Shown here piece by piece: positions 69 to 22,600 of a stretch of DNA of 64,000 nucleotides. Source of the DNA: an uncultured Chthoniobacter sp. (GTDB lineage: Bacteria; Verrucomicrobiota; Verrucomicrobiia; Chthoniobacterales; Terrimicrobiaceae); NCBI GenBank assembly GCA_964585615.1, contig CAZPEN010000023.1:1-64000 (forward strand), read 5' to 3'. The notes under the pieces were generated by a model that saw only the letters and a list, made by a program, of their open reading frames with translations, did no database searches and had not been told where the DNA came from. The position numbers were made by a program, and so were the translations under genes. How positions within the stretch are numbered: the stretch's first letter is position 1; each line of letters begins with the position of its first letter.

Positions 69-177
69 TATGAATTTGGACAACTTGATGGCAGCTTTCG
101 CGCATCGGCATCAAGAAGGAAAGCTCCTCACATTCCGTTTGGCAGGGAGAACAAGGATTGCCATTTGCCGCACAAGT

Positions 178-193
178 TGGCACGATTTTTGCC
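178..193 (+). promoter_or_regulatory. Sigma-54 (RpoN) -24/-12 promoter: TGGCACGatttTTGC
   Basis: Exact match to the TGGCACG-N4-TTGC consensus. GC of the -12 element at 191-192, 15 nt before the ATG at 207. Same strand as the downstream gene block. Confidence 0.7.
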
Positions 194-206
194 TCATCTC
201 CATTCG

Positions 207-680
207 ATGAAAAAACTCACATACGCCCTCCTCGCCGCCGCAGTGCTTGCCGGTGCGGGAAACGGATTCACCCGCGAGCCGGAGAAGTTCACGACCGAAG
301 AGGTCGTGACGGAAAAGAAAACCGTGAAAGTGCAGGCCAGTCCGGCCTCGGCCTTTCCATCCAACCCAAACGCGCAATACGTGAAGCTGCGGGTGGGAGA
401 AATCCGCCCGGCCCTTGAATCGAAAGGGAGCCTGTTTGCCTCCGCTCCGGAAGCCTTTTATCTGCCCGCCGAGGCTATCGGAGTGGTGCAGGTGATCGTG
501 GAAAAGAAAGGCACGACCGCCACGTATTTCCTCAAGGGCCTGCGCAAGGGAAAAACGGTCGGGGGCGTGGTCCAGCGCGGATGGCTTGACAAGACCGGCT
601 TCAAACCGAGGACGATCACCGACGAAGGCCGCATCCAGCAAGCGCTCAAGGCAAAACCCTTTTACGTCACTGTCGAATGA
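207..680 (+). CDS. secreted hypothetical protein (signal peptide MKKLTYALLAAAVLAGAG)
   Basis: ORF 165..680; the N-terminal signal peptide starts at the ATG at 207. No recognisable catalytic motifs. Confidence 0.6.
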   Translation: MKKLTYALLAAAVLAGAGNGFTREPEKFTTEEVVTEKKTVKVQASPASAFPSNPNAQYVKLRVGEIRPALESKGSLFASAPEAFYLPAEAIGVVQVIVEKKGTTATYFLKGLRKGKTVGGVVQRGWLDKTGFKPRTITDEGRIQQALKAKPFYVTVE

Positions 681-949
681 AAAAAATATCCATCCCGCTC
701 GCCGCCTCGCTTTTGCTCGTGGGCTGCGCCACGCAGATCACGGAAGGCCCCACCGGCCCTTCACGTCCGGCTCCGGTAGTCACGTCCTCCCCCGCCCCAA
801 CGCCCCGGCCCCAACCGGCGGAATCACCACGACCGACGCCGTCCCCGGTGAGCCGACCCACCCCTTACCCGATCCCCCAGAGACCCGATACAGGCACCTC
901 GCCTCTGGCCCCTTCGCCGGACCAACCGATCTGGCAACGCACCCAGTAA
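677..949 (+). CDS. small proline-rich lipoprotein (LVGCAT lipobox)
   Basis: Signal peptide plus lipobox LLLVGC. Pro/Thr/Ser-rich low-complexity mature part. Start overlaps the previous stop by 4 nt. Confidence 0.5.
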   Translation: MKKISIPLAASLLLVGCATQITEGPTGPSRPAPVVTSSPAPTPRPQPAESPRPTPSPVSRPTPYPIPQRPDTGTSPLAPSPDQPIWQRTQ

Positions 950-2620: not shown

Positions 2621-2638
2621 GCATCAAAAAATCCATCC

Positions 2639-4438
2639 ATGAAAAAACTCAAAATCCTCTGCATTCACGGCGTGGGCCAGCACGAGGCGGACATCGCCTG
2701 GGTGCAGGCTTGGGCGGATCATGCGATTCAGGGCACGAAGCCCTGGAACCCGACTCTGCAAACCGAGGCAGACCTTCTCTATTTTGAAAAGTTTTTCGCC
2801 GACGCGCCGATCAATGCGGCGACATATGCCAAAGCGATCTCAGCGATGACCTTCAGCGGGCTGACACACGGAATCGGGGATTTGTTCCGCCGCAACCGGG
2901 GGGTCACGGAGGTCTCCAACAAAGTTCGCTGGCTTGCAGGCATGGTGGTGCAATGGGCGGACAACCCTCAACTCCGGGACAAGGTGCGGAAGGCAATCCG
3001 GCAGAAAATCACGAACTATCAACCCGATGTGATTCTCGCCCATAGCCTTGGCTCGCTCGTCACCTACGATACATTCGTGCACGGCGGGGACGATCTCGTG
3101 CGGGACCGATATTACGTGACCTTCGGGTCCCAAATCGGAAATCCCTTCGTGAGAAATATTTTTGGAGGACGGATTGTCCCTCTACCCGCCAAACGCTGGT
3201 TCCATCTTTTCAATCCTCAGGATGACGTGCTGACCGCCCGATTGAATCTCTCGGACACAAATTTTCTTCAAGTCATCACGGATTTTGAGCTTGAAGGCGT
3301 TGGCGATCACGATGCCGATGGCTACCTCAGCCATGCATCTGCCGTTCAGGTTGTGTGGTCAGAGATCAGTGGGGCCGAAAAATCCCAGTTGGCGAGGAAT
3401 CTGAAGGGAAAGTTCACGGCATCCGTGCGCGGTGCGGGCAAGCCTCTCAACCGGGCGCTGATCATCGGAATCAACGACTATCCCGATCCCAAGATGCGGC
3501 TTGAGGGATGTGTCAACGACGCCTTCCGCATGAGTGAGACGCTCCAGGAGTGCGGCTTTCCCGCAGAGGGAATCCGCCTGCTGCTCAATGAGCGCGCCAC
3601 GACGGATGCCATCCGAGAGCGCCTGGCCTGGCTGCTTGACCGTCCCCAGCCGGGCGACCAGCGGTTCCTGGCCTTCAGCGGGCACGGAGCGCAGATCGAA
3701 TCCTACGGACTCGGTGAATCCGTGGACCGTCAGGACGAGTGTCTTGTGCCCTACGATTTCGACTGGAGCCTGGACCGTGCCATCCTCGACGACTTCATCC
3801 ACGACCTCTACGTGGACCTCCCCGAGGGGCTGGACTTTTACGCGTTCTTCGACTGCTGCCACTCCGGAGGACTGGCCCGTGAGGGAGGCCCGAGGGTTCG
3901 GGGCCTGCAGCCTCCCGACGATGTCCGCCACCGCAGCTTGGAATGGGATGGAAAGCTGCAACTCTGGAAAGCCCGCAACCTGCCTCCCGTTAATCCCGAT
4001 CTCGCCGCATCGACAAAAAGCACATCGGCGATCAGTGGCGACGGGTCGGCCCTTTCAAATGGACAGTCTTACCTGGGGCGATCCGGGAATCTGCACCGCC
4101 TCTTGCGCTCTTCCTCACTCCGCACACTGCCAAACGCAAAATACGACTCCGTGCGCAAGGATCTCCATCACCACGGCCCCTATCTGCCCGTCATCTTCCA
4201 AGCCTGTCAGGAAAGCGAACTCGCCTGCGAATACCACCACGGAGCAGTGCCCTACGGGGCTTTCACCTTTGTCACAACCAATATCCTCCGCCAACACGCC
4301 GCACAGAAAAAGACGATCACCTTTGCCTCGTTGATCAAACGAACCAACTCCGCGCTCAAGGCGCTCGGTTACACACAGACACCGGTGCTCGTGGGACCAA
4401 GCGTAAAAATGCGAAAACCAATGCCTTGGAAGAAATAG
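2639..4438 (+). CDS. alpha/beta-hydrolase (lipase/esterase-like, AHSLGS nucleophile elbow) fused to a C-terminal caspase-like peptidase C14 domain
   Basis: N-terminus ILCIHGVGQ, AHSLGS, and later D and H residues typical of alpha/beta-hydrolases. C-terminal half has the caspase His (FSGHGAQ) and Cys (FFDCCHSGG) dyad after an ALIIGINDYPD..L.GCVNDA start. Confidence 0.8.
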   Translation: MKKLKILCIHGVGQHEADIAWVQAWADHAIQGTKPWNPTLQTEADLLYFEKFFADAPINAATYAKAISAMTFSGLTHGIGDLFRRNRGVTEVSNKVRWLAGMVVQWADNPQLRDKVRKAIRQKITNYQPDVILAHSLGSLVTYDTFVHGGDDLVRDRYYVTFGSQIGNPFVRNIFGGRIVPLPAKRWFHLFNPQDDVLTARLNLSDTNFLQVITDFELEGVGDHDADGYLSHASAVQVVWSEISGAEKSQLARNLKGKFTASVRGAGKPLNRALIIGINDYPDPKMRLEGCVNDAFRMSETLQECGFPAEGIRLLLNERATTDAIRERLAWLLDRPQPGDQRFLAFSGHGAQIESYGLGESVDRQDECLVPYDFDWSLDRAILDDFIHDLYVDLPEGLDFYAFFDCCHSGGLAREGGPRVRGLQPPDDVRHRSLEWDGKLQLWKARNLPPVNPDLAASTKSTSAISGDGSALSNGQSYLGRSGNLHRLLRSSSLRTLPNAKYDSVRKDLHHHGPYLPVIFQACQESELACEYHHGAVPYGAFTFVTTNILRQHAAQKKTITFASLIKRTNSALKALGYTQTPVLVGPSVKMRKPMPWKK

Positions 4439-4444
4439 AAGGGT

Positions 4445-5758
4445 ATGATCACTACAACTGAAGAATTGCTTGCCCGCGCCCGCTCTGCCCTGGGAAAGAA
4501 GATCCCTTATGAGAACAGCAAAGGTGGCTTCAAACCCGAAATCGATACTCCCAATCAGCGCGGCGGTTGCGACTGTAGCGGTTTCGTCGCCTGGGCGCTC
4601 GGCATTAGCCGCCTCACGAAGGATCCGTTCTACCTCCGCAAGAATGGTGGCTGGATTGAGACAACAGCCGTTTATGAGGATATTGGCTCGCCGGTGGGGC
4701 TGTTCTCTGCCCTGGACCAGCCACAACCCGGATGCGTCGTGGTCTATCCAGATCACGTCGCCGGTGGCACACCACACGAAGGTCACATCGGAATCGTGAC
4801 GAAGGTAAGAAAAACCGCAGCCGGTGCGGAAGCAACCTCCGTGATTCACTGCTCCTCATCGGGTTGGAAGAAGCAGGGAGACTCTATCCAGGAGAACGCG
4901 CCAGCCGCTCTGCTCAAGAATCCAGATGTGAGATACGGGTGGTTTTCCGGTATGGAATCTGTCATGTCGCCCGCTTCCAGATCCACGATTACCACAGCAA
5001 CCAGAGGGTTGCTCAGAGATGTCCCGCATGCCGCGGGAGTCCGGTTTTCCGTGAAGGAAGGGGACGGGATATTTACCCACGCCTGGGAGTTCCCCGGCGA
5101 GACACCATTCTTTTTTCAGAGCCGCCTTCATGTGTGCGCTGACGGTGCGCCAGACGCCTATGCGCCGGGAAACCTGGGAACAGACGACCTGCGTAACGCC
5201 GGAAAGCCTCCTCGCAAAGACGCTCCGATGGATCGCGACTTTCACCTCTGGAAATGGTTTGGCATAGTTGTTGGTGACGGAAATCACCCCATTGTACAAA
5301 AAGCCTCCGACCCCAACCCCGGCTTCTTCGTTTCCCAAACCGCCCATGGCAACTGGGGACGCTACCCGGAGACCGATCCGCGCTGCTACGTGAACGCCAA
5401 CGAGATCGCCTATCTGGTGCTTCCGAGTGGGCATACCGGCGGAGCTCGCAAGGGAGATTTTGGATCTATTATTCATCGCCCCACCGGCAAGGCGATCCCC
5501 GCCATCTGGTCCGAAGTGGGGCCGGACGACGAGACCGGGGAAGCATCGATTCTGGCTGTGAAGCAACTGGGATTTGTCGCCAACCCTCGCAAGGGAGGCA
5601 GTTCAAAACGCGAATTCCTCTATCTCGTCTTCCCGGGCTCAGGCAATGGTCGGCCTCGCGAGCAGAAAGAGATCGAAAAGATCGGCGGCCGACTTTTCGC
5701 CGATTGGGGCGGAATCCAGCGGGTATCGCGCCTGCCGGATCTGACGGGACGGGTATGA
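4445..5758 (+). CDS. NlpC/P60-like (papain-fold) cell-wall peptidase domain protein with a C-terminal domain of unknown function
   Basis: GGCDCSGFVAWALG motif (NlpC/P60 catalytic Cys context) and downstream HIGIV His. About 290 C-terminal residues unassigned. Confidence 0.6.
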   Translation: MITTTEELLARARSALGKKIPYENSKGGFKPEIDTPNQRGGCDCSGFVAWALGISRLTKDPFYLRKNGGWIETTAVYEDIGSPVGLFSALDQPQPGCVVVYPDHVAGGTPHEGHIGIVTKVRKTAAGAEATSVIHCSSSGWKKQGDSIQENAPAALLKNPDVRYGWFSGMESVMSPASRSTITTATRGLLRDVPHAAGVRFSVKEGDGIFTHAWEFPGETPFFFQSRLHVCADGAPDAYAPGNLGTDDLRNAGKPPRKDAPMDRDFHLWKWFGIVVGDGNHPIVQKASDPNPGFFVSQTAHGNWGRYPETDPRCYVNANEIAYLVLPSGHTGGARKGDFGSIIHRPTGKAIPAIWSEVGPDDETGEASILAVKQLGFVANPRKGGSSKREFLYLVFPGSGNGRPREQKEIEKIGGRLFADWGGIQRVSRLPDLTGRV

Positions 5759-7596
5759 ACTTCAGGACGGAGGGGCATCTGAACAGGGAGGACTCGCAAG
5801 GCTGGTATTTTAGTGAGTTCGACAGAATTGGCCTTGGCCGATTCCTCCTCCGGCAGAACGCAGGGCGCAAGCTGGCTTTGTGGGCTTTGCTGTTCTGGTC
5901 GATCGTCCTGCTTCTTGGCCACTACGGGAAAGCCAACTATATTCCCCGCGTTTTCGAATTGTCTTTCCCGGTTGGAGAGCAATGGGAAAAATTCACTCTT
6001 GTTCTAAAAAGCGGCTACCTTGCCGAGGCCAACCACGGTCTTTTTTACCTGCTGGTTGCTCCCCTGTTTCTCTTCCTCGCCCACTCCTTTCTATGGCAAG
6101 TGGGTGCCATTACCAGGACCTTGATTGAACACCGCAGGCTTGTGCCCCTGCCACCCAGCGCGAGTTTTACGGAGCGCCTCGCACGATGGAACACCTGGTT
6201 TTTGCCAATTTGGATTCTGGCCTTTTGTGTTTGGGTTCCGGCCCAGCTGTTTCAGGAATATTCCAGCCTCAACAAGGTGAGGTCTTCCGGTTACGACCGG
6301 AAGTCGGAAAGCCTCTCAAAGAACTTTGGCTATGTGCAGGCTTGGCAGACGGGAAAATGGTGCGACACGTTTGGAGAAACTCCCCTGCACGAGCGGGCGG
6401 AATGGCTGGCATCAAGCCGATTGTGGAAAGAAGAGTCTCCCTCGTTATCCCAGAAATTCGAAAATCGCGTCGCTTATAACAAACTCGGCATCCCCTCAGA
6501 ATACTTTATCTCGCTTGAGGCCAGAACGCAGGGATTGGCCTTTAACACCCTCCGGCCAGAAAAGGCCGGAAGAATCTATGACTCGGGACACTTTGCGATT
6601 CGACTTCCCGATTGGTTGCACGCACGAGGAGTTGCTCTGGACAAGCCACCGAAATGGAACTTTACGGTGCTGCCCCAACATCGATGGGATGCCCAAACGG
6701 TACGGGAAAAATATTGCTTTGAAGCCTTCCTGTTTCTCAATCTTGCCTCGGAAGCCTGTTTCCAGGTTGTCGCAACGCTTATCGTGATCAAGAGCATCGC
6801 CTGGATCGTTCTTTTGCAATATTGGCTGCCTTCCGCGACAACTTCCAAACCAAACGGAACGATCTTTCGCTTCATGAGGGAGGTTTTCCCCAAGGTATTT
6901 GCCATTGCCGCGCTCGGACTTACGGTCGTTTTTGCTTGTATCAAGCCGATGACCTTGTTCGCCACGGTTCCGGCCTGGCTGCTGGCTGCCTTGCTTTTCA
7001 ATCTCGCACGTCAGGGACGCAAGGAGGCGATTGCGCACGCCAAGATCAGGCCGGACTGCCAGGATCCGACCCGCAAATACGGAATGGGGGAAATTCACGC
7101 CATATACAATGCCATGGTTGCCCTGGCCGCACTTGGAGCGCTGGGTCTATGCCTACTACTTCTGAATTCCTTCACCCCCGGAGTCTTGGACACGGGTGGC
7201 GGCCACACACAGGTTATCGAATTTCTGAGCATTCTTTTGGTTGTAGCAGTGGTTTTGGCCGTAGTTTTCGGGCCGATGACGTTATTCAGTTGGCACCTCG
7301 CGACGTATCGGGAAAAATGCATCGGCAGAGTGGCCGCCAAAGGCACGACGGAATGGCTGCGCTTGACGGATTTGATGAGAAGCCAATGGGCTTGGCCGTG
7401 GAAGAATGCCTGGTTTGTGACATTGTCGGGGGCGGTCATCGCATTTTGCGCCGTGGGAGCCGGCATGAGCCTGGGTTTTCTGCCGGGTGAGTTACAGAGC
7501 TCTGCCGACAGCTTCATGGATTTGCCACGAAACTTTCGCGAGTTGGCTTGCTATCTTGCTTCCGCCACCAATCCAGAATTGTCTTTCCGAGATTGA
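5755..7596 (+). CDS. polytopic integral membrane protein (about 12 predicted TM helices), unknown function
   Basis: Many long hydrophobic segments. ATG at 5755 overlaps the upstream TGA (ATGA coupling). Confidence 0.6.
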   Translation: MNFRTEGHLNREDSQGWYFSEFDRIGLGRFLLRQNAGRKLALWALLFWSIVLLLGHYGKANYIPRVFELSFPVGEQWEKFTLVLKSGYLAEANHGLFYLLVAPLFLFLAHSFLWQVGAITRTLIEHRRLVPLPPSASFTERLARWNTWFLPIWILAFCVWVPAQLFQEYSSLNKVRSSGYDRKSESLSKNFGYVQAWQTGKWCDTFGETPLHERAEWLASSRLWKEESPSLSQKFENRVAYNKLGIPSEYFISLEARTQGLAFNTLRPEKAGRIYDSGHFAIRLPDWLHARGVALDKPPKWNFTVLPQHRWDAQTVREKYCFEAFLFLNLASEACFQVVATLIVIKSIAWIVLLQYWLPSATTSKPNGTIFRFMREVFPKVFAIAALGLTVVFACIKPMTLFATVPAWLLAALLFNLARQGRKEAIAHAKIRPDCQDPTRKYGMGEIHAIYNAMVALAALGALGLCLLLLNSFTPGVLDTGGGHTQVIEFLSILLVVAVVLAVVFGPMTLFSWHLATYREKCIGRVAAKGTTEWLRLTDLMRSQWAWPWKNAWFVTLSGAVIAFCAVGAGMSLGFLPGELQSSADSFMDLPRNFRELACYLASATNPELSFRD

Positions 7597-7664: not shown

Positions 7665-7680
7665 TGGCACAGAAATTGCC
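7665..7680 (+). promoter_or_regulatory. Sigma-54 -24/-12 promoter: TGGCACagaaaTTGC
   Basis: Matches the TGGCAC-N5-TTGC consensus. In the 95-nt gap before the kinase gene. GC of -12 at 7678-7679, 13 nt before the GTG at 7692. Confidence 0.65.
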
Positions 7681-7691: not shown

Positions 7692-9599
7692 GTGACAAAC
7701 GACGAACTCAATTCCTCCACGCTCAGCGGCGCGACCAGCGCCGGCGACGGTGCGTTGCCGGACGACATCGATTTCGGCCAGACGATCCGCGGGTTTGTCG
7801 AAGGGCAGGAGGCGTTTGGCCGTTATCGCCTTCGGAAGATTTTGGGCCGGGGCGGCATGGGGCTTGTCTGGCTGGCATGGGACGGACGGCTGGAGCGGGA
7901 TGTCGCGCTCAAGTTCATGCCGGAGATGGTGCGTTTGGATGCTTCGGCCATTGACGATCTCAAGCGGGAAACGCGCAAGAGCCTCGAACTCACTCATGCC
8001 AACATCGTTCGCATTCACGATTTTGCCATGGACGACTTGTCGGCAGCCATCGCCATGGAATATGTGGATGGCCCTACGCTTTCGGCTCTCCGCATCCAAA
8101 AACCGAACCGCGTTTTCGAGCCGGACGAGATTGTTGAGTGGGTGCGCCAGCTCTGCGCCGCCCTCGACTATGCACACTCGGAGGCCAAAATCGTCCATCG
8201 TGACCTCAAACCCGCCAACCTGATGCTCAGTTCCGGCGGACGCCTCAAAATCACCGACTTCGGCATCGCACGATCAATCAGCGACAGCATGAGTCGCGTT
8301 TCGGTGCAGCATCACGACAGCAGCGGCACGCTCGCCTACATGAGTCCACAGCAGGCCATCGGTGCGAAGCCTTCCTCAGCGGATGACATCTACAGCCTCG
8401 GGGCGACTCTCTATGACCTCCTTACCGGGAAGCCTCCGTTCCACAGCGGGAACATCTACGCCCAAGTTCGAGAGGTTGTGCCACCACCCATAGCCGAGAG
8501 ACGGGTGCAGCTGGACGTGGGAAGCAGCATGGTGCTTCCTGAGTCATGGGAAAAGATGATTGCAGCTTGCCTGGCGAAGGATCCTGCACACCGCCCGCAA
8601 TCGGCTGCCGAGATCTGGGAGGGTCTCAACGTACGTGTGTCCGCTGACACGTTGAAAAAATCGAGCCGCTTTCCGGTGCGGGTGGCTGCTGTTGTGGTCC
8701 TCTCCCTCATCGCTGCAGGCGCAGGCTGGTGGTTCGGCTACGAGCAGCCGCGCCAGCAGGCTGCTGCCGCACTCGCAGCCCAGGCGCAGGCCGAGGGACT
8801 CGCCCGCCAGGCCGCTGCTGCCGAGGCACAGGTTCAAAAGGAAGAAGCCGAAACCGCCGCTCGACAGGAAGCCGAGCGAAAGAAGGCCGAAGCTGCCGCC
8901 GCCGAGCAAGCCCGCATCGCCGCAGCCAAGCAGCAGCTCATCACCGAGACCCAGGATCTTGCTCAAAAGGCGCTCGCGGCCAAACAGTGGAACCAGGCAG
9001 AGTCCATTGCCGACAAACTTACCTCGCTCGACCCTCAGAATACGCAGATCGCGAGCATCCGCCAGTCTACAGTAGTCGGCCGCGAAGCCCAGCGTACCTC
9101 CGAGGAACGCGCCCGGGCGCTGCCCCCCGACCTCCCCGCCTCCGCAGCCTTCAGCACAGAAGCGATCTTCGCTCCCTCCCCCTACGCATCATACAACAAC
9201 TACTCGCAAAGTCAGATCCTTCGAAGAGCTCAGGAAAAGCTCAAATCAGCCGGGCTTTACAGCGGATCCGCTGACGGAGAATCCGGTGCAGGAACCACAA
9301 ATGCACTCATCGCTTTCCAGCGGGCAGACATGAACTTGCCTGTTTCAGGACGGTTGGATGATCCCACGCTCGCCGCACTCGGCCTCACCGGCATCGCCGA
9401 AATGACAGCGCCTACCCCCACACCACGTCCAAAACCGACCGCCACACCGAGGCCAAAGCCCGCAGGCACTACGAAGCCTCCTCCTTCCAATCCCAATAGT
9501 TCCGTGGATCCTAGAAGTGCCCTTCAAAGAAACTACGAGGCGGGATACATAGACAAAGAAACAAGAGACTTTTACCTCGAAGGTTTAAAAAACAGATAA
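7692..9599 (+). CDS. Hanks-type Ser/Thr protein kinase with TM helix, Ala/Gln/Glu-rich coiled-coil linker and C-terminal peptidoglycan-binding (PG_binding_1-like) domain
   Basis: Kinase motifs GRGGMG, VALK, HRDLKPAN, DFG, SGTLAYMSPQQ. TM segment VAAVVVLSLIAAGAGWWFG. C-terminus LKSAGLYSGSADGESGAGTTNALIAFQRADMNLPVSGRLDDPTLAAL matches the PG_binding_1 pattern. GTG start. Confidence 0.9.
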   Translation: MTNDELNSSTLSGATSAGDGALPDDIDFGQTIRGFVEGQEAFGRYRLRKILGRGGMGLVWLAWDGRLERDVALKFMPEMVRLDASAIDDLKRETRKSLELTHANIVRIHDFAMDDLSAAIAMEYVDGPTLSALRIQKPNRVFEPDEIVEWVRQLCAALDYAHSEAKIVHRDLKPANLMLSSGGRLKITDFGIARSISDSMSRVSVQHHDSSGTLAYMSPQQAIGAKPSSADDIYSLGATLYDLLTGKPPFHSGNIYAQVREVVPPPIAERRVQLDVGSSMVLPESWEKMIAACLAKDPAHRPQSAAEIWEGLNVRVSADTLKKSSRFPVRVAAVVVLSLIAAGAGWWFGYEQPRQQAAAALAAQAQAEGLARQAAAAEAQVQKEEAETAARQEAERKKAEAAAAEQARIAAAKQQLITETQDLAQKALAAKQWNQAESIADKLTSLDPQNTQIASIRQSTVVGREAQRTSEERARALPPDLPASAAFSTEAIFAPSPYASYNNYSQSQILRRAQEKLKSAGLYSGSADGESGAGTTNALIAFQRADMNLPVSGRLDDPTLAALGLTGIAEMTAPTPTPRPKPTATPRPKPAGTTKPPPSNPNSSVDPRSALQRNYEAGYIDKETRDFYLEGLKNR

Positions 9600-12171: not shown

Positions 12172-12181
12172 GGAGGAGGCC

Positions 12182-14863: not shown

Positions 14864-15640
14864 ATGAAATACATTGTTTTAGCACTGCTGGGCATAGCAG
14901 GATTCTCTCGCGCGCAGGAGACAAATTCGCTTGGGATGAAACTTGTGCCGGTGCCTGGAACAAAGATCCTGATGGCGACGACGGAGGTGACGGTGGACCA
15001 ATACAAGGCGGCAGGGCTCGGGTATGAGTCGCCGAAGTTTCCGCAGGGAGGCAATCACCCTGCGGTGAACGTGAGCTGGAACGACGCGAAGAAGTATTGC
15101 GCGTGGCTGAGTAAGAAGGAGGGGAAGAAGTATCGGCTGCCGACAGATCATGAATGGAGTTGCGCTGTCGGAATCGGACATTTGGAGAATCCAGCAGACA
15201 ATCCGGCAAGCAAGAGTGAAAAGATCGTTGATGTGTATCCATGGGGAAAAGGGAAGCCGAGCGGGAAGGCAGGCAACTACATGGGGCAGGAGTGGAATTC
15301 GCCAATGGGAATCGAGACCGCTCAAAAATACGGATTCAAGCGGGGCGAGTGGAGTTTAGTTCCTGGCTATCACGACGGAGTTCTTTTCACATCGGCGGTC
15401 GGCAACTACTCACCGAATACATTTGGGATCTACGATTTGGGGGGAAACGTTTGGGAGTTGTGCGAGGACAAGTTCGGCGGGAACGGATATGATAAGAGCA
15501 TGCGTGTGCAACGGGGCGGGTCATGGGGATACTTCACCAAGGATTTTGTATTATCGTCCTCCCGTATCCGCAATGAACCAGGATCTCGCAGCGACAACAT
15601 CGGCTTTCGGGTTGTGTGTATTCCAATAGATAAACCGTGA
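14864..15640 (+). CDS. FGE-sulfatase (SUMF1/formylglycine-generating enzyme family) domain protein, secreted, paralog 1
   Basis: NHPAVNVSWNDAKKYCAWLS, RLPTDHEW, DLGGNVWE, RGGSW motifs typical of the FGE-sulfatase domain. Signal peptide. Confidence 0.8.
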   Translation: MKYIVLALLGIAGFSRAQETNSLGMKLVPVPGTKILMATTEVTVDQYKAAGLGYESPKFPQGGNHPAVNVSWNDAKKYCAWLSKKEGKKYRLPTDHEWSCAVGIGHLENPADNPASKSEKIVDVYPWGKGKPSGKAGNYMGQEWNSPMGIETAQKYGFKRGEWSLVPGYHDGVLFTSAVGNYSPNTFGIYDLGGNVWELCEDKFGGNGYDKSMRVQRGGSWGYFTKDFVLSSSRIRNEPGSRSDNIGFRVVCIPIDKP

Positions 15641-15756
15641 ATGATATGAATGAATCAAAAACGTTGGCAAAGCCAGGAATTGGAAGACAGCCTTCCGGAT
15701 TTAGTATCGAAGTGGAGAGCGAAGCGAAGCAAATGGCTTGCCGATCCGTCCGAGTA

Positions 15757-16566
15757 ATGAAAGCGAAACGCATCGGCAGGATGCGGATGCCACGATGGGT
15801 TGTCTTGGCGATGGCGCTTGTGGTGTCGGCGTCTATCGCTCGCGCGCAGGGTTTCACGAACAGCGTTGGAATGAAGATGGTTCCTGTGCCGGGCACAAAG
15901 ATCCTGATGGGGACGACGGAGGTGACAGTGGATCAATACCGGGCGGCAGGTCTGGGGTATGAGGCACCGGAGTTCGCGCAGAGCGGGAACCATCCGGCGG
16001 TGAATGTGAGCTGGAACGATGCGAAGAAATACTGCGCATGGCTGAGCAAGAAGGAGGGGAAGAAGTATCGTTTGCCGAGTGACCGGGAGTGGAGTTGCGC
16101 GGTGGGGATCGGGAATCTGGAGAGCGTGGGAGGGAGCCCGGAGAGCAAGTGCGAGAAGTTGCCGGATGTGTTTCCGTGGGGAAGCGGGAAGCCGAGTGGG
16201 AGGGCAGGGAATTACATGGGGCAGGAGTGGAAAAGTAGCTCGGCAGGAATAGCATATGCGAAATCGAAGGGTTGGAAAGAGGGGCAACTGTGCCTGGTTC
16301 CCGACTACAATGATGGACACATGTTCACGGCTCCCGTGGGAAGCTATTCACCGAACAGTCTTGGGATCTACGATCTGGGGGGAAACGTGTGGGAATGGTG
16401 CGAGGACAAATACGGAGGAAGCGGAGCAGCAAAAGCCTATCGTGTGATGCGCGGCGGGGCGTGGGGCGGTGGCGACATCTGCGGTTTGCTGTCGTCGTGT
16501 CGCGATCACGTCAATCCCGAGTATCGCGGCGGTAGCTACGGTTTTCGGGTGGTCTGTGAGGCGTGA
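15757..16566 (+). CDS. FGE-sulfatase domain protein, secreted, paralog 2 (tandem duplicate)
   Basis: About 70% identical to the upstream paralog over the domain. Same motifs. Confidence 0.8.
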   Translation: MKAKRIGRMRMPRWVVLAMALVVSASIARAQGFTNSVGMKMVPVPGTKILMGTTEVTVDQYRAAGLGYEAPEFAQSGNHPAVNVSWNDAKKYCAWLSKKEGKKYRLPSDREWSCAVGIGNLESVGGSPESKCEKLPDVFPWGSGKPSGRAGNYMGQEWKSSSAGIAYAKSKGWKEGQLCLVPDYNDGHMFTAPVGSYSPNSLGIYDLGGNVWEWCEDKYGGSGAAKAYRVMRGGAWGGGDICGLLSSCRDHVNPEYRGGSYGFRVVCEA

Positions 16567-16646: not shown

Positions 16647-17366
16647 ATGAAATGCCATTTTGGTGGTTCAAAGCGGTCGAATCGAGAAAGCCAAGCCTCT
16701 CAACAGGAACTTAACGGTGTCCGGCGGATTTCGCTACTGCCTCTTTGCGTTTTTTTGATCCTGACTTTTCTCGCGAGCCATGTCGGAGCGCAATCCTACG
16801 GCTTGGCACCAATTTATGTGGGTATTGAGAAGAACGCGATATCCGGTATTTCGGCTTCGCAGAAGACACCGATGTGGTGTTGGGCTGCTTGTATTGAGAT
16901 GGTGTTGCGGTATTACAACATTGAAATCACTCAGGAAGATGTCGTCTATCGCACCTACGGTATTGACGCGGCTGGAAATCTGCCAGTATTTGGAGCGAAA
17001 GCCCCGGAGATCACACGGAATCTAAATAACTGGAGTTTCGATCGGAATGGCAAACCTTACGTGGTTCGGGCGGCGTTGTTTCCGGGAACTCCGCGTAACG
17101 AGATTGTCATTGATCATCTCAAATCGGGAAGGCCCATTATCCTGGGATATGGACCTGATCCTGATTCCGGCCATGTCGTGGTGCTGACGGCACTGAGTTA
17201 TGTCGTGGACCAATATGGGAGGCCATATGTGACTACCTTGATTGTGCGAGATCCGTTTCCCGATAATTGGGGATTGATGGATCGAGGGCGAAAGGAATAC
17301 GTGAACGGCATGCTCCCGGCACCGATTCAATGGATGTGGATCGTGGATGCAAAACGGGCCTATTGA
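16647..17366 (+). CDS. secreted papain-like cysteine peptidase (C39-like domain)
   Basis: Signal peptide. PMWCWAACIEMVL (Cys in a C39/papain-like context) and downstream SGHVVVLTAL His. Confidence 0.55.
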   Translation: MKCHFGGSKRSNRESQASQQELNGVRRISLLPLCVFLILTFLASHVGAQSYGLAPIYVGIEKNAISGISASQKTPMWCWAACIEMVLRYYNIEITQEDVVYRTYGIDAAGNLPVFGAKAPEITRNLNNWSFDRNGKPYVVRAALFPGTPRNEIVIDHLKSGRPIILGYGPDPDSGHVVVLTALSYVVDQYGRPYVTTLIVRDPFPDNWGLMDRGRKEYVNGMLPAPIQWMWIVDAKRAY

Positions 17367-17502
17367 ACTGCCACGCCTGATGAAGTACAAATAAATGTCT
17401 GCCCAGCACCGCGATAAATCCCTGTCCGCTCTTCTTTTAAAATATGACTGTAGCCAGATCCAAATATAGAAAGAGAAAGCTACAAATGGCTGTTCAGATT
17501 GG

Positions 17503-18771
17503 ATGTGTTGGGTTTCTGGTTGTATGAAAACAAGACCATGCCTTAGGATTGTGCGTCTAGCCTGCAAGCATTTCAATAAGTTGAGTCAGCGCGAGGTTTT
17601 CGCATTTGTTGTCATTTCTCTGGGAGGCTTGGCTGGTGGTTTTTTGAGTGATTTACGACATCCAGATCCTCTGGCAAGCCGGGAGAGCATGGATTATTTT
17701 TACCTGATTTTCGGTGTGGCTGCAGCTTGGGTTGGCGTCTACGTCGTTCTGGGGAGTGAGGTCGTCAAGCTTGTTCGCCGCTTTGCCCTGTCGGTGGTTT
17801 GTGGCTTCGCTGGCGTAGCGGTAATTGAAAGCACGCAAAGCTTTGTTGGAGTGAAGGAGAAGGTGGATTTTCAGAGTGCTTTGAATCAAGAGAAATTGAT
17901 ACAAGAAAGGATTCGACAGATTATCCGACAGCAGGAATTGCAAGTTGATGGGGCGAGAATTGAGAATAGCGCTGAAGCAAAGATCCAGGAGACGCGAAAT
18001 CGTTTAGCTCAGCTTCTTTCGATGGCAGCTGCCTATCCTTCGATGGAAACGGATGGCATGATACTTCCGACACTTTTTGTCGGCCTCGATACTCTTGAAG
18101 ACGGAGTCAAGCAAGCTCCGCGTGAGTCAGTGCAGGCACTTCGTGATCTTTCGGGATTGGAAGGTCTCTGCTTGTCGGATTACATGAAGGGTCTCCTAAA
18201 GCGACACTTGAGGAACGCGGAAACATCTCTGCAGGCAGTTGCCGCCTCTACTCCGATTCCCAATTTGGCAGGTTCTGAAGTCGCTTCCTCTCCTGCGACA
18301 GCGAAGCCCACTGCGCAAATAGGAAACATGCCCGGCAGAGGTGCATCACCCTCTCCTTCTCCAATCGGCCTTTCTACGGCTAGTCCAACGCCTGAGCAAG
18401 AATCTGCCGTGGGGTTTATCAGGGTTGCGAACTATGGCCCTCTTCAAAGTCAAAATCCAAAGTGGGATGATATTTTGATTCGCTCCGCGCAAGGAAATAA
18501 GAATCGAGGCTTCCCTAAACCAACCGGAGCGGAGCCCGAGAATGAAATGCTGGATCTGAACGCGAAATACGTTGTGGAGGCCGATATTTTTCTTCGTAGC
18601 GACTTTCCCTCAGTGAACGAGAAGGGGCTGTTATTCGCCCCCAGTATCGCCGTAATTAAAAGGGGATCTCTGGTTACAGTGACACGTGCGGCGATCAGAT
18701 CGAACAAATCGCTGTCTCAACTTTGGGCGGAAGTTTCCGTTAACCGAAACGATCTTCTTTCTGTTGAGTGA
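17503..18771 (+). CDS. membrane-anchored coiled-coil protein, unknown function
   Basis: N-terminal TM segments then long helical region. Lower GC at its 5' end. Confidence 0.45.
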   Translation: MCWVSGCMKTRPCLRIVRLACKHFNKLSQREVFAFVVISLGGLAGGFLSDLRHPDPLASRESMDYFYLIFGVAAAWVGVYVVLGSEVVKLVRRFALSVVCGFAGVAVIESTQSFVGVKEKVDFQSALNQEKLIQERIRQIIRQQELQVDGARIENSAEAKIQETRNRLAQLLSMAAAYPSMETDGMILPTLFVGLDTLEDGVKQAPRESVQALRDLSGLEGLCLSDYMKGLLKRHLRNAETSLQAVAASTPIPNLAGSEVASSPATAKPTAQIGNMPGRGASPSPSPIGLSTASPTPEQESAVGFIRVANYGPLQSQNPKWDDILIRSAQGNKNRGFPKPTGAEPENEMLDLNAKYVVEADIFLRSDFPSVNEKGLLFAPSIAVIKRGSLVTVTRAAIRSNKSLSQLWAEVSVNRNDLLSVE

Positions 18772-18893: not shown

Positions 18894-18909
18894 TGGCACG
18901 GAATTTGCC
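18894..18909 (+). promoter_or_regulatory. Sigma-54 -24/-12 promoter: TGGCACGgaatTTGC (perfect consensus)
   Basis: Exact TGGCACG-N4-TTGC. 58 nt upstream of the ATG at 18966. Precedes the tandem FHA-TM-caspase genes. Confidence 0.75.
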
Positions 18910-18965: not shown

Positions 18966-20921
18966 ATGCCTGCCATAAACCCTCTCCGCATTTCCCGACT
19001 CAGCGGCTTCGGCTCGAAGCCCCCGCAGGACTTTGATCGATCTCCCGTTACCCTCGGCACAGCGTCCAGTTGTCACATTCGCTTCGATGCCGTTCTCGAC
19101 AAGGGCGTGGGGCCGCAGCATGCCCGGCTGGAGTGGAATGGAGAGGCGTGGTATTTGCTGGATGGCGGAACGCCCGCTGGCATCTGGTTAGATGGGCGTC
19201 GGCTGGAAGAACCCCTGCGGGCGGGAGGGGAGTTTTCCTTTCGGCTGGGTCAATCGGGTCCGGGAGTTTCCGTGCACGTGCTGCCAGCCAGCGTTATGTC
19301 TGAGGTCCCGGTCGCTCCGTTGCCGGTTCTTCCGCCCCCAAAAACAAAGCCACGTCTGCCAGTCGCGGGGATTGTGGTGGCAATCGTGCTTGCGGTGGCA
19401 ATCCTCGCCGGGGGTGGGGTTTTCATAGGGCGGAAGCTCGCGAACCCCAAAAATCTGGATTTCTCCGCACCAGCCCAAGAAGAGGATTTCTCACTAACCG
19501 ATCCCGTCTTTCAGGCGCAGCAGGCACAACAGCAACTCGCCTCAACCCCGCCGGGTCCGCAACCATGGGATCAGACCGGTCCGGACGAGGAGGATCTCAC
19601 CTGGCTGCCGATGGAGCCATCGTATCAATACTCAACTTATGTCCAAGGATGGACTCCCGGGAGCGGCAGCAGCCCCTTCACCGGAGATCTCTCCAGCCCA
19701 AGCCTGGCACAGGAATTTGCCCAACTCAGCATCCGCCCCCCGCAATTCGTCGAAGAACCCGGCGGTGGCCTGCCCCCCCAATCGGCGGGAGCAATCTGGA
19801 CCACGGACGACACCCGGTTGGCGGTGGAGCTGATGCTGGCGGCGGAATATGGCGCCAATCCCCCGCCAGATACAGAGGCACAGGGAGGGCTGCCAGCACA
19901 GGGAGCACCGGGCGTGTTCGTTCCGGGCAATCTTTCTCCTGAAGAGCTCCAGGCGGTCGAGGATCAGCTTGGCCGCCAGGCATCGAAGGCAGCAGGGGGA
20001 AATGCGCGGCATTTTGCAAAGACTTTGCGCATGGCCCTCGATACGGAGGCTCGCAATGCCGGACGGCAGCGCCTTGCGGCAAGTGCACGGGAGGAGGGGG
20101 CAACTTCTCCAGACGTCAGCCCGCAGGTGTGGGCGGTGATCGTTGGCATTGACGATTTTGAGAATATCAACGACATCGTGGGCTGCAAAAACGATGCCAT
20201 CGGCATGGCGAAGATTCTCATGCTGCACGGGTTGCTCCATCCCAAACGAACCTACTTGATGACCGACAAGATGCAGGGAGCCATGCGACCGACGGGAGCG
20301 AACATCAAAAGAGCCTTGAACGAGGTCCTCACCAAGGCGGGACCGAACGATATGGTGGTTTTCTTTTTTTCCGGCCACGGGGGAGAAGATCCCGCCTCGG
20401 GGGAAACCGTGTTCACCGGTGTGGACTTTACCTTCGACGATCCACTGGATACGGGGTTGACCGGCTCCGCTCTCCAGTCACTTATTAAACGCTCCGCCGC
20501 GTCCAAGTTACTCATGTTCTTTGATGCCTGCCACGCTGGCGGTTTGGCGCCACTGGGCCGGAATCCGCGGGGATTTCGCAGTGGTGTGAATCCGACTTTT
20601 CTCGATCAACTGGCCGAGGGCCGCGGGCATGTGGTGATCCGCGCCGCCGCCAAGGAGGAGATGAGCATCGGGAGCGATAAATTGAATCACGGTATTTTTA
20701 CATTTGTCACGCTGGCGGGTCTGACAGGAGGGGCGGATCGCGACAAGGATGGAATCGTGACCCTCAGCGAACTGCGACCCTACGTGACTCGGGAGACTCC
20801 GAAGCTTGCCAAGCAACTCGGCCATGACGTCTTCCATCCGAGCTTTACGAGCGGCGGACAGGCGGGTGAAATCGGCGACATTCCGCTGACGATCGTTCCT
20901 CCACCGGCACCCAAAAAATAA
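18966..20921 (+). CDS. FHA domain - TM helix - Pro/Gln-rich linker - caspase-like C14 peptidase
   Basis: N-terminal FHA (SPVTLGTASSCHIRFD..QHARLEW..WYLLDGGTPAGIWLDGRRL). TM VAGIVVAIVLAVAILAGGGVFIG. C-terminal caspase with FFFSGHGG (His) and FFDACHAGG (Cys). Confidence 0.85.
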   Translation: MPAINPLRISRLSGFGSKPPQDFDRSPVTLGTASSCHIRFDAVLDKGVGPQHARLEWNGEAWYLLDGGTPAGIWLDGRRLEEPLRAGGEFSFRLGQSGPGVSVHVLPASVMSEVPVAPLPVLPPPKTKPRLPVAGIVVAIVLAVAILAGGGVFIGRKLANPKNLDFSAPAQEEDFSLTDPVFQAQQAQQQLASTPPGPQPWDQTGPDEEDLTWLPMEPSYQYSTYVQGWTPGSGSSPFTGDLSSPSLAQEFAQLSIRPPQFVEEPGGGLPPQSAGAIWTTDDTRLAVELMLAAEYGANPPPDTEAQGGLPAQGAPGVFVPGNLSPEELQAVEDQLGRQASKAAGGNARHFAKTLRMALDTEARNAGRQRLAASAREEGATSPDVSPQVWAVIVGIDDFENINDIVGCKNDAIGMAKILMLHGLLHPKRTYLMTDKMQGAMRPTGANIKRALNEVLTKAGPNDMVVFFFSGHGGEDPASGETVFTGVDFTFDDPLDTGLTGSALQSLIKRSAASKLLMFFDACHAGGLAPLGRNPRGFRSGVNPTFLDQLAEGRGHVVIRAAAKEEMSIGSDKLNHGIFTFVTLAGLTGGADRDKDGIVTLSELRPYVTRETPKLAKQLGHDVFHPSFTSGGQAGEIGDIPLTIVPPPAPKK

Positions 20922-20923
20922 CT

Positions 20924-22600
20924 ATGAGCAGCGAACTTCAAATCACCAAGATCACGGGATTTCAGCGGGGCAAAGCGACCCGGTTTGTCGAGAGCCCCGT
21001 GGTGCTTGGCACGGCCGACACTTGCTCTCTCATTTTTGATCCCGCTTGGGATAAGACGGTTTCTGCCAAGCACGCCACAGTGGAACTCCGGGAAGGTGAC
21101 TGGTGGTTCATTGACCACAGCGAGCATGGCAGTTGGATCAACGGCCAACGGCTTTCCGCCGCCCGCAAACTGGAGCCGGTGACCGAAATCGAACTCGGGC
21201 GCGGCGGCCCAAAGATCCGGTTGGAGTTTGCCGTGGCCCCGATGTCGTCTCCTGTGCCCATGAGTCCTCCTCCTGTGCAAGCCCCGGTACCCCCTGTGCC
21301 CACGCTCCCGGCTTCAATGGGGCCAGTCAAAAGGGGATCTCGCGGATCCAAGCCCCTCGTATTGGCAGCAGGGATTATTCTTTTTCTGGGTTTGGGAGTG
21401 GCGGGGATCGTGTTTTGGAACGGCTCCAAAGAGGAACAAGCCCTGGAGGAAACTGCTCAGGAAGCCCCGCCCGACGAAGAGTTGTGCGAACTGGTCGAGG
21501 AATCCGCCCCGCAAAATCCCCCGCCTTCGGCAACGACTCCCGCGTCGTCAGCCATTGGTCGCGGCTGGGCCATCATTGCTGGCGTCAACCAATACTCCAA
21601 CGGAATCAACTCCCTCGCCATGTGTGTCAACGACGCCAAGGCGGTCGCCAAGTCGCTGGTGGACTCCGGCATCTTCCACTCGGACAGCGTGATTCTGATG
21701 ACGGACGAATCGCCTCCCGAGTTGCAGCCGACTTCGATCAATATCGAACGGATGATCAAGACCGTAGCCGCCCAGGCCAAGCCCGAGGACATTGTCTATT
21801 TCAGCTTTTCCGGGCATGGCGACTGGGACGAAGCGAAGCAAGACTCGATGATTATCACCAGCGACGCCAATCCGCAGAATCTCGAACGCACCACTCTCTA
21901 TGGCGCGACCCTGCAAAAGCTCTTCTCCGGAATCGCGGCCGAGAAGCTCATTGTCGTGCTGGACTCCTGCCACAGCGGCGGCATTCAGGTAAAGGGCCGC
22001 AAGGAAGTCCGCCAAGCCGCAGGAATCCCCGAGGCGTTTTATCAGAAGTTCACCGATTCCAAGGGGCAGATCACCGTGCGTTCCTGTGCTTTCAACGAGG
22101 TTTCCTGGGAGTCACCCGAACTGGGGCACGGGCTCTTCACCTACCATCTGGTCGCCGGGCTCACCGGAGCGGCAGATCGCGACGGGGATGGAATCGCCAC
22201 CCTTTCCGAGGTGAGGGCGTATGTTTCCGAAAAGGTCCCGGCAGACGCGGTTGCCAAATTCGGCGAAAAGCAAACCCCGAGCTTTACCAGCGGCGGCCTG
22301 CTGGGTGAGGTCGGCGACATTCCGCTCACCGTCATACCGGCCCAGCGAGCCCGACGTCTCGGCACGCTGGACACCCTGCGCCAGCGCGCCAGCGCCCTCT
22401 CCGCCCAGGACAAAATTTCCGCTCAGGAACTCGATACCATCAAAGATACCCTGCGTGTCCTCTCCGAAAAACGCCGTTTCGCTCCCGCCGAACAAGAACA
22501 GATCAAACTCACACTTCGGCTGCTCCTGGGAAAGACCACTGCAGCCGACTACCGCCTGGCCTCACGGGCACTCGGCGGCACAAAGCCCGCGTCTAAATAG
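20924..22600 (+). CDS. FHA domain - TM helix - caspase-like C14 peptidase (paralog of the upstream gene)
   Basis: FHA (SPVVLGTADTCSLIFD..KHATVEL..WWFIDHSEHGSWINGQRL). TM LVLAAGIILFLGLGVAGIVFW. Caspase FSFSGHGDWDE and VLDSCHSGG. 3-nt intergenic gap from the upstream paralog. Confidence 0.85.
   Translation: MSSELQITKITGFQRGKATRFVESPVVLGTADTCSLIFDPAWDKTVSAKHATVELREGDWWFIDHSEHGSWINGQRLSAARKLEPVTEIELGRGGPKIRLEFAVAPMSSPVPMSPPPVQAPVPPVPTLPASMGPVKRGSRGSKPLVLAAGIILFLGLGVAGIVFWNGSKEEQALEETAQEAPPDEELCELVEESAPQNPPPSATTPASSAIGRGWAIIAGVNQYSNGINSLAMCVNDAKAVAKSLVDSGIFHSDSVILMTDESPPELQPTSINIERMIKTVAAQAKPEDIVYFSFSGHGDWDEAKQDSMIITSDANPQNLERTTLYGATLQKLFSGIAAEKLIVVLDSCHSGGIQVKGRKEVRQAAGIPEAFYQKFTDSKGQITVRSCAFNEVSWESPELGHGLFTYHLVAGLTGAADRDGDGIATLSEVRAYVSEKVPADAVAKFGEKQTPSFTSGGLLGEVGDIPLTVIPAQRARRLGTLDTLRQRASALSAQDKISAQELDTIKDTLRVLSEKRRFAPAEQEQIKLTLRLLLGKTTAADYRLASRALGGTKPASK

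Follow-up and report, generated by a model that had tools for sequence, protein, structure and literature searches.

Gene content of the locus

The stretch of DNA studied here, 64,000 nucleotides (nt) of contig CAZPEN010000023.1 (the window), contains a 22-kb block that combines a Hanks-type Ser/Thr kinase, a sigma-54 activator of the bacterial enhancer-binding protein (bEBP) class carrying an FHA domain, an SPFH-family protein and a pair of membrane-anchored caspase-like proteases, together with four candidate sigma-54 promoters. The regulatory wiring suggested by this arrangement is well supported by comparison with related loci, while its trigger and its physiological outcome are what we infer. 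Full-text literature searches found no description of this cluster.

Positions 207-22600 hold 19 intact genes, all on the plus strand, with 94% of the sequence coding and gaps of -4 to 251 nt (open reading frame (ORF) listing and translation). An initial annotation, made from the sequence alone, had counted 20 plus-strand genes; the strand was correct, and besides the intact genes there is the relic of a deleted pYEATS gene at 14592-14786. Nearly all of its domain calls across the block are confirmed by Pfam, among them the two FGE-sulfatase paralogs (14831-16566), the zinc-ribbon/SPFH protein (13051-14592) and the PG_binding-M15 (10353-11168) and C39-like (16647-17366) enzymes. Long minus-strand ORFs inside the plus-strand genes were left out of the domain scan and are taken as non-coding shadow ORFs, which are common in GC-rich DNA. 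The locus extends beyond the left window edge, since another FGE-sulfatase gene terminates at about position 19. We define the backbone of the system as a secreted protein of 157 amino acids (aa), sec157, a lipoprotein, the FHA-bEBP, a receptor Ser/Thr kinase, a double zinc ribbon-SPFH protein (ZnR-SPFH) and a pair of proteases in which an FHA domain and a catalytic domain are separated by a transmembrane segment (FHA-TM-proteases; TM, transmembrane). The features are as follows, with helix-turn-helix abbreviated as HTH.

1..68, plus: 3' end of an FGE-sulfatase gene with hairpin tail (CCCTGC-GAAG-CAGGG); gene body mostly left of the window
178..193, plus: sigma-54 promoter P1, TGGCACGATTTTTGCC; ATG 14 nt downstream; position kept in L003/L168
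207..680, plus: sec157, secreted, C-terminal Ig-like beta-sandwich; conserved backbone gene
677..949, plus: Pro-rich lipoprotein, LVGC lipobox; backbone gene with homologs in L168 and L009
959..2620, plus: FHA-bEBP; canonical FHA, conserved middle domain, sigma-54 AAA+ domain with GAFTDA loop, AAA lid, no HTH; backbone
2639..4438, plus: alpha/beta-hydrolase-like domain (Ser136/Asp195/His224) and caspase (SGHG / DCCHSGG), cytoplasmic; accessory, absent from L168, L009 and L171-L175
4445..5758, plus: CHAP/NlpC-P60-like amidase (DCSGF), weak GH75-like C-terminal domain, no signal peptide; accessory
5755..7596, plus: polytopic membrane protein, about 9 TM segments, no family match; accessory
7665..7680, plus: sigma-54 promoter P2, TGGCACAGAAATTGCC; kinase GTG 12 nt downstream
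7692..9599, plus: Hanks Ser/Thr kinase; N-terminal tail, TM segment, Ala-rich coiled coil, PG_binding_1; GTG start; backbone
9647..10252, plus: lipoprotein, 201 aa, GC 0.48; accessory
10353..11168, plus: PG_binding_1 and Peptidase_M15_4, endolysin-like, no signal peptide; accessory
11368..11838, plus: lipoprotein, 156 aa, no assigned family; accessory
11845..12171, plus: helical protein, 108 aa, no assigned family; accessory
12182..12799, plus: 205-aa protein related to phrog_3000 and to an endolysin domain, no signal peptide; accessory
12983..12998, plus: sigma-54 promoter P3, TGGCACGGAATCTGCC; ahead of the ZnR-SPFH gene
13051..14592, plus: ZnR-SPFH, a cytoplasmic protein with double zinc ribbon, SPFH/Band_7 and coiled coil; conserved more widely than any other backbone gene
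14592..14786, plus: pYEATS gene relic; intact counterpart in L168
14831..15640 and 15637..16566, plus: two secreted FGE-sulfatase-fold paralogs, followed by a hairpin at 16599-16613; only in island-type loci (window, L168, L008)
16647..17366, plus: secreted Peptidase_C39_2/C70-like cysteine protease; accessory
17503..18771, plus: 3-TM protein, 422 aa; accessory
18894..18909, plus: sigma-54 promoter P4, TGGCACGGAATTTGCC; ahead of the FHA-TM-caspase pair
18966..20921, plus: FHA-TM-caspase A; atypical FHA, one TM segment, long Pro/Gln-rich linker, metacaspase-like domain, EF-hand-like loop
20924..22600, plus: FHA-TM-caspase B; atypical FHA, one TM segment, metacaspase-like domain (His298/Cys349), helical C-terminal tail
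23318..23775, minus: tRNA-Ser(GGA) and tRNA-Arg(ACG), about 700 nt past the right end of the island; likely integration landmark

The fold of sec157 is generic Ig-like. The tails at 1-68 and 16560-16627 are 81% identical over 68 nt, share the hairpin CCCTGC-GAAG-CAGGG and an A-run, and each follows a different FGE-sulfatase gene, which implies a duplication of the FGE cassette that included its own 3' end. Positions 3-239 of L001 align with window positions 16333-16627 at 74% identity.

Promoters, activator and kinase

The motif TGGCAC-N5-YTGCC occurs five times in the window, where 0.11 matches are expected. Four of the five sites (178, 7665, 12983, 18894) lie on the plus strand, are intergenic, lie 14-57 nt before start codons and have GG at -24, GC at -12 and the TGGCAC-N5-TTGC spacing of sigma-54 promoters. 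The fifth, at 30732, is within a DUF58 gene and was judged a chance match; the weak sites at 11225 and 14794 were rejected as promoters for want of a proper -12 element. No further match was found in the other sizeable gaps of the block, so the C39 and 3-TM genes have no sigma-54 promoter of their own. P1 and P2 are so close to the start codons that their transcripts would be almost leaderless.

The motif is retained at equivalent positions across L168, L008, L009 and L171-L175. The counterpart of P3 stands before the SPFH gene in L168, L009, L174 and L175 and before the preceding small gene or genes in L171-L173, and in L168 and L008 that of P4 is found ahead of the two caspase genes. The loci of the system hold 1.29 copies of the motif per 10 kb and 157 unrelated loci 0.056 per 10 kb, a 23-fold difference. 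Enriched, intergenic and kept in place in homologous loci, the four promoters of the initial annotation have stood up well. In L168, two FGE-sulfatase genes each have a tandem pair of sigma-54-like sites ahead of them (3922, 3990, 7847, 7962; TGGCATGGGACTTGCC and TGGCATGGAAGCTGCC) and appear to belong to the regulon there too. Sigma-54 use has been reported in Opitutia (PMC12316311). A scan for sigma-70 promoters and terminators was uninformative, terminators being no more frequent than expected by chance, and an Rfam scan returned tRNAs only.

The gene at 959-2620 matches FHA (1.7e-14), Sigma54_activat (PF00158, 3e-71) and AAA_lid_14 in Pfam, as the initial annotation had it, and its placement within a sigma-54-driven unit is borne out by its position downstream of P1. 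Such a unit also contains the activator gene in L171, in L175 and, where the -12 element is weaker, in L168; positive feedback is therefore predicted. Aligned to OdhI/GarA, its FHA domain has the phosphothreonine (pThr) pocket residues GR34, S48-R-x-H51 and N70-G71, and these GR/SRxH/NG residues, the GAFTDA loop and the Walker motifs are kept in 5/5 activator orthologs. The orthologs measure 552-557 aa at 49-90% identity and every one terminates after the AAA lid; the protein encoded here stops 3 residues past it, with the next gene beginning 18 nt later, and no C-terminal HTH or other DNA-binding domain was found in the activator or its orthologs (5/5 examined). By its sequence the activator thus belongs to the bEBP subgroup that has no DNA-binding domain. 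When the sequences upstream of 13 promoters were searched for shared k-mers, no common enhancer motif emerged, consistent with the missing HTH. Such a protein would have to act from solution, and any active copy would then fire every sigma-54 promoter in the cell.

Helicobacter FlgR and Chlamydia CtcC are bEBPs of this kind, response regulators with receiver domains, and Chlamydiae are relatives of Verrucomicrobia in the Planctomycetes-Verrucomicrobia-Chlamydiae (PVC) group. The present activator resembles them in ending after the AAA lid and, presumably, in acting from solution, but has an FHA and a novel middle domain instead of the receiver. In the kinase-rich organism Myxococcus xanthus, FHA-EBPs fuse an N-terminal FHA to a sigma-54 AAA+ activator; unlike these, the family described here has no HTH, depends on sigma-54 promoters for its own expression and is tied in the genome to kinases, SPFH and FHA-TM-proteases.

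The kinase (7692-9599) combines Pkinase (8e-47) and PG_binding_1 (4e-12) with a single TM segment separating them (Pfam and topology prediction), as expected from the earlier description of a Hanks kinase with a periplasmic peptidoglycan (PG)-binding domain. Its catalytic motifs are intact in translation (GRGGMG, VALK, HRDLKPAN, DFG), its N-terminal tail is conserved with Thr10-Leu11 invariant, and the kinase domain is 52-65% identical to those of L009 and L171-L175. Peptidoglycan sensing as a conserved feature was not upheld: orthologous kinases bear PEGA, TonB_C, beta-helix or DnaJ_C ectodomains instead.

Proteases, relatives and cargo

Each of the genes at 18966-20921 and 20924-22600 encodes an FHA and a Peptidase_C14 domain with one TM segment between them, and Peptidase_C14 scores above the Pfam threshold in all three caspases that had been proposed for the block. 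Since a signal-less N-terminal FHA is followed by a single TM segment (predicted N-in topology), the two caspase domains would be periplasmic. The His-Cys dyad is invariant (H298/C349 in caspase B). A Foldseek search with a model of caspase B, whose mean predicted local distance difference test score is only 63, gave metacaspase matches (E ~1e-10, TM-score ~0.63), so that the caspase domains resemble metacaspases by sequence and, on a moderate-confidence model, by predicted fold. An EF-hand-like loop, D-x-D-x-D-G-I-(V/A)-T-L-S-E, lies at 22172-22207 (P0001 residues 417-428) with a homologous site in 18966-20921; it is present in 8/8 aligned FHA-TM-caspases with the Asp, Gly, Ile, Thr, Leu and Glu positions invariant, which suggests Ca2+ control of the putative periplasmic protease.

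The FHA domains of the proteases form a divergent subfamily in which every member is without the phosphate-binding Arg and Asn (Arg to Thr, Ser or Ala; Asn to His, Gly, Asp or Ala; in some also Ser to Gly or Ala). The two caspases of the window have Arg to Thr and Asn to His/Ala, paralog A additionally Ser to Gly, and the FHA domains of trypsin-type relatives likewise have no canonical pThr residues. The initial proposal of three FHA pThr readers accordingly stands for the canonical domain of the activator, while a reader role of the two protease FHAs is unproven. The catalytic domain itself varies across the wider family, with a trypsin/trypsin pair in L171 and caspase/trypsin in L174 and L175; in the wider family the caspase is thus interchangeable with trypsin.

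Relatives were compared by gene context and all-against-all BLAST. Across nine loci (the window and eight others) the FHA-bEBP, the Hanks kinase, ZnR-SPFH and the FHA-TM-protease pair are conserved together, along with sec157, the lipoprotein and the promoter motif, which answers the question of neighbourhood conservation raised by the initial annotation. Close relatives of caspase B are rare: only four close lineages were found among 5.8 billion proteins, none in PLSDB plasmids, IMG/VR or the GTDB representatives (best 35% identity in the latter), and a metagenome scan contributed the L168 lineage only. L168/L003, with a caspase B homolog of 78% identity, is a compact island with the order IS21, Phd/PIN, FGE-sulfatase genes, sec157, lipoprotein, FHA-bEBP, ZnR-SPFH, pYEATS, FGE-sulfatase, caspases A and B, a ClpB-like ATPase and a coupling protein of a type IV secretion system (T4SS). 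Compared with it the window carries 10.3 kb more at 2621-12954 and a further additional segment at 15637-18771, and has lost most of pYEATS. The pYEATS gene of L168 (13522-14286) lies between the SPFH and FGE-sulfatase genes, and the window keeps about 200 nt of it (14592-14786). In L008 (58% identity) the caspase pair is found between CHAP/lipase-like cargo and TrbL/VirB9/VirB10 genes. L009/L010 (57% identity) has caspases A and B, SPFH, sec157, the lipoprotein, a kinase ortholog whose ectodomain is PEGA, and a divergent sigma-54-driven operon that encodes p300, p230 and a ZnR-FHA protein.

The system reaches further than its caspases. ZnR-SPFH has 109 homologs, mostly full-length at 43-95% identity, and those with an organism name are all Verrucomicrobial (Opitutaceae, Chthoniobacteraceae or 'Verrucomicrobia bacterium'); a sec157 homolog is known from Lacunisphaera. 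Five loci, L171-L175, on contigs of 35 kb to 3.3 Mb, have no mobility genes in the stretches read and are taken as chromosomal. Pooled over the five, with no single locus holding all items, they have FHA-bEBPs (552-555 aa, 49-57% identical to that of the window, in 3/5 loci), one to four Hanks kinases (kinase domain 52-63% identical), sec157 homologs, p300, p230 and ZnR-FHA, with the same promoter motif ahead of the same genes. PP2C phosphatase genes adjoin SPFH in L171 and L172, which fits reversible pThr control. As backbone and promoter motif recur in these loci and in the island-type loci, the window holds a variant of a phylum-wide cluster; its backbone reads as the mobile form of one that Verrucomicrobial contigs also carry where mobility genes are not in view. 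By the same comparison one protease domain can replace another, and the cargo made up of FGE-sulfatases, hydrolases and alpha/beta-hydrolase-caspase is specific to the islands.

One alternative reading of the cluster is a protective envelope-stress regulon like Psp/sigma-E, in which kinases sense damage, SPFH and DegS/HtrA-like proteases repair it and hydrolases remodel the wall. L171-L175 fit this well, with trypsin-type FHA-TM-proteases, SPFH and PP2C, no lytic cargo and no mobility genes in view, and a phylum-wide spread suits housekeeping signalling more than defence. There is also precedent in PspF/sigma-54 for the control of envelope stress: sigma-54 and a bEBP govern a membrane scaffold (PspF-PspA), and the membrane-anchored periplasmic protease DegS transduces stress, both of which have likenesses here. 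The present input, however, is a Ser/Thr kinase with FHA, the scaffold is an SPFH protein with zinc ribbons, and the proteases are paired and have a cytoplasmic FHA. We consider this reading unlikely: the window version is on a probable island with three signal-less PG hydrolases and a fusion of death-effector type, its relatives adjoin toxin-antitoxin and T4SS genes, and positive autoregulation suits commitment more than homeostasis. The clustering of several kinases, PP2C and several FHA proteins in L171 and L172 also recalls signalling clusters for growth, division or development, such as actinobacterial fhaA-fhaB-pstP-pknA-pknB or the FHA-EBP regulators known from Myxococcus development. 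This seems very improbable to us: no divisome or elongasome genes (RodA, PBP, FtsW) were found in any locus examined, and apparent mobile-element copies are unexpected for core cell-cycle machinery.

The block probably makes up the right-hand side of a genomic island. Its similarity to L168 stops at 22630, and a histidine-kinase fragment and then tRNA-Ser and tRNA-Arg are next; the fragment, a 149-aa HATPase_c ORF at 22723-23172 between the island end and tRNA-Ser, looks like a relic at a scarred junction. The GC content is mosaic, host-like at 0.60-0.63 in backbone genes and 0.48-0.58 in accessory genes (0.50 over the C39 and 3-TM genes, 16647..18771). Island-type relatives are flanked by IS21, Phd/PIN and T4SS genes. 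A related genome (L006) has a MoxR-DUF58-SpoIIM-RDD operon and, elsewhere, only a truncated relic of caspase B. This relic (L006 10001-11152 / L007 601-1752), a 383-aa caspase (P0005) 71% identical to caspase B residues 166-552, has neither FHA nor TM segment and is probably a decayed remnant in an unrelated context. The corresponding operon of the window, at 27952-34813 on the minus strand (DUF4129, DUF4350, MoxR (AAA_3), DUF58, SpoIIM, RDD), is syntenic with L006 at 67-75% nt identity and lies outside the island. A second small mobile element, at 56767-61221, follows tRNA-Met (56767-56843) with a GC content of 0.565 against 0.605 in the core, and carries a MobA/MobL relaxase gene (57050-58333, minus) and an AbiEii/AbiEi type IV toxin-antitoxin pair (59677-61221, minus). 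Also outside the island is an 1830-aa alpha-2-macroglobulin, a broad protease trap (50759-56251, plus). A fused LpxC-FabZ gene (45677-46993, minus) falls in a 90% cluster of 72 members, all from metagenomes or metagenome-assembled genomes, which fits a common uncultured lineage, taken as Verrucomicrobiota from the named homologs of other window genes.

Adjacent T4SS genes could also mean interbacterial weaponry, in which signal-less amidases, lipase-like hydrolases and proteases are exported by the conjugative-type T4SS of the element, adjacent lipoproteins provide immunity and the kinase/sigma-54 circuit is triggered by contact. Such genes adjoin the caspase pair in L008 and are near it in L168, cargo is CHAP/GDSL-lipase-like in L008 and includes an LCAT-like lipase in L168, lipoprotein and hydrolase genes are interleaved in the window, and the logic is shared with kinase/Fha-gated type VI secretion system (T6SS) firing (PMC10482370). 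Against this, the window ORFs scanned include no secretion-system gene, no recognisable effector-targeting domains were found, and the backbone of L171-L175 exists without cargo and without T4SS; we regard the idea as highly unlikely.

The cargo includes the gene at 2639-4438. Its caspase half matches Peptidase_C14 (3.6e-26, Pfam), and its other half, which the initial annotation called an alpha/beta-hydrolase, has no Pfam or PDB match of its own. At family level the call is sustained: an exhaustive search gave at least 485 representatives, and the pattern HG...AHSxG...D...H is invariant at HG11, H135, G138, D195 and H224 in 42/42 sampled members (S136 nearly so), of which 38 carry C14 and 3 weakly match alpha/beta-hydrolase Pfam families. 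Family-level pattern and C14 co-occurrence thus argue that the fusion is real and widespread. The supposed NlpC/P60 enzyme at 4445-5758 gives a CHAP match just below the Pfam cut-off (25.5 vs 26 bits) and does have the DCSGF...HIGIV motif. Endolysin-like matches were obtained for 10353-11168 and 12182-12799 (PHROGs); the three PG hydrolases have no signal peptides and are accompanied by polytopic membrane proteins. For cargo of no assigned family, PADLOC, PHROGs and NCBIfam gave only domain-level or endolysin-like matches. Diversification of the FGE-sulfatases as receptors by a diversity-generating retroelement (DGR) was ruled out, the window having no reverse transcriptase domain and no template repeat, only the repeats due to FGE1/FGE2 paralogy.

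Neither this cargo nor the PG-binding ectodomain of the kinase was upheld as a conserved part of the system: the PG hydrolases, alpha/beta-hydrolase-caspase, C39 protease and FGE-sulfatases are variable and absent from L171-L175. The backbone alone might be the system, with 2621-12954 minus the kinase, plus 15637-18771, as unrelated island cargo in the same orientation. These genes are missing in L168, where the bEBP gene almost directly abuts P3, have no homologs in L009 or L171-L175, are lower in GC (0.48-0.58) and include the promoter-less C39 and 3-TM genes. Gaps of -4 to 18 nt nevertheless tie 2639-7596 to the bEBP gene, and 9647-12799 follow the kinase with no other recognisable promoter, so that transcripts begun at P1 and P2 would cover both groups; envelope-degrading cargo is present at the same places in other island-type relatives too. 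On balance we find it rather unlikely that the backbone alone is the system.

A candidate phosphorylation-gated switch

We favour the reading that the island encodes a sigma-54 switch gated by Ser/Thr phosphorylation and serving an envelope-attack response or lysis, at a probability of roughly 55%. An envelope cue would activate the membrane kinase through its extracytoplasmic wall- or surface-binding domain, and the kinase would then phosphorylate itself or a partner on Thr. The canonical FHA of the activator, to judge from its intact residues and co-conservation, would read the pThr and license assembly of the AAA+ ring. Acting from solution, the activator may then fire all TGGCAC-N5-TTGCC promoters of the island, its own included, giving a switch-like response by positive feedback. 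The predicted outputs are an SPFH scaffold, secreted proteins of FGE-sulfatase (lectin-like) fold and two inner-membrane, periplasm-facing metacaspase-like proteases, A and B, which probably act as a pair. In this island alone they would be joined by PG hydrolases with no signal peptide, by polytopic membrane proteins and by the fusion of alpha/beta-hydrolase and caspase, which resembles a protease-licensed death effector. The role we infer for the cluster is an inducible, envelope-directed response to phage, competitors or conjugation-type envelope damage, ending in remodelling or altruistic lysis. The island may also use the kinases and activator of its host.

Several observations weigh against this. 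The protease FHAs without Arg and Asn make kinase-to-protease coupling doubtful. In the closest relative, L168, the kinase is reduced to a 35-aa relic, a loss that would be explained if the island can rely on host kinases and activator. No PP2C gene was found in this locus or in the window ORFs scanned, and domain scans of the window ORFs did not find rpoN. The C39 and 3-TM genes have no sigma-54 promoter, and the accessory genes as a whole, which lack conservation, could be cargo with no relation to the system. For abortive infection a switch at the level of transcription is slow, and a protective stress role fits the backbone equally well. PADLOC gave only generic kinase (PD-T4-6), caspase and RtcR-AAA domain matches, none of them system-specific, and a known anti-phage system was rejected on that ground. 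A phage lysis cassette or prophage was likewise rejected: there are endolysin-like genes only, with no phage structural genes in the window and no close IMG/VR relatives.

The closest logic among known systems is that of the T6SS threonine-phosphorylation pathway with its sigma-54 activators (VasH/Sfa2). The TagQRST-PpkA-Fha1-PppA pathway responds to envelope damage (PMC10482370). It shares with the present system a Hanks kinase with an extracytoplasmic domain, with a lipoprotein and a periplasmic protein placed upstream of it, as well as FHA readers, PP2C (here seen in L171 and L172) and a locus that is itself under sigma-54/bEBP control. The present system differs in that FHA domains form part of the bEBP and of membrane proteases, in having a bEBP with no DNA-binding domain, and in its outputs of proteases, SPFH and hydrolases; the scanned window ORFs gave no Pfam match to T6SS structural genes (TssA-M, Hcp, VgrG) or to PppA/PP2C. 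TagR may be an FGE-sulfatase-fold protein; a literature search did not corroborate this, and we keep it as a lead only.

Death-effector modules offer a second comparison. A pair of alpha/beta-hydrolase and caspase is an experimentally characterised module of this type (PMC12642450), and the repertoire of antiviral conflict systems (Kaur et al. 2020, PMC7159879) includes FGE-sulfatase (FGS), kinase, FHA and caspase domains. The gene at 2639-4438 similarly joins a lipase-like alpha/beta-hydrolase and a caspase, a likeness by triad pattern and C14 only. Here, however, both domains are in one chain, FGS proteins are exported, the periplasm is the predicted site of the main caspases, and regulation works at transcription by way of sigma-54. 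The island is not accompanied by a STAND or MoxR-vWA NTPase core like that of NTP-dependent conflict systems; the MoxR-DUF58 operon of the window is on the opposite strand and syntenic in the island-free L006. The locus lacks the defining features of the T6SS pathway, HTH-type bEBPs, STAND/MoxR-vWA conflict systems and DGR systems.

It is tempting to speculate further, in an extension that we hold to be tentative and on present grounds unlikely, that a trans-envelope switch exists phylum-wide. Kinases, PP2C and an FHA-bEBP with no DNA-binding domain would form a self-amplifying sigma-54 circuit whose executioners are a heteromeric inner-membrane protease pair (trypsin/metacaspase) with non-canonical FHA in the cytoplasm and Ca2+-dependent catalysis in the periplasm; mobile elements would have copied the circuit, swapped trypsin for caspase and added lytic cargo, creating a suicide or defence island. 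If true, bacteria would have an equivalent of the way in which death receptors activate caspases across a membrane.

The cluster points to a conserved signalling-proteolysis system in a poorly studied phylum, in which eukaryote-like Ser/Thr phospho-signalling would be tied directly to sigma-54 transcription and to periplasm-facing caspase- or trypsin-like proteases. With four short promoters and a single activator, the regulon should be easy to test heterologously. It may thus provide a tractable case for the roles of bacterial caspase homologs outside the cytoplasm, for the specificity of an activator without a DNA-binding domain, and for the way in which mobile elements plug cargo into the signalling network of their host.

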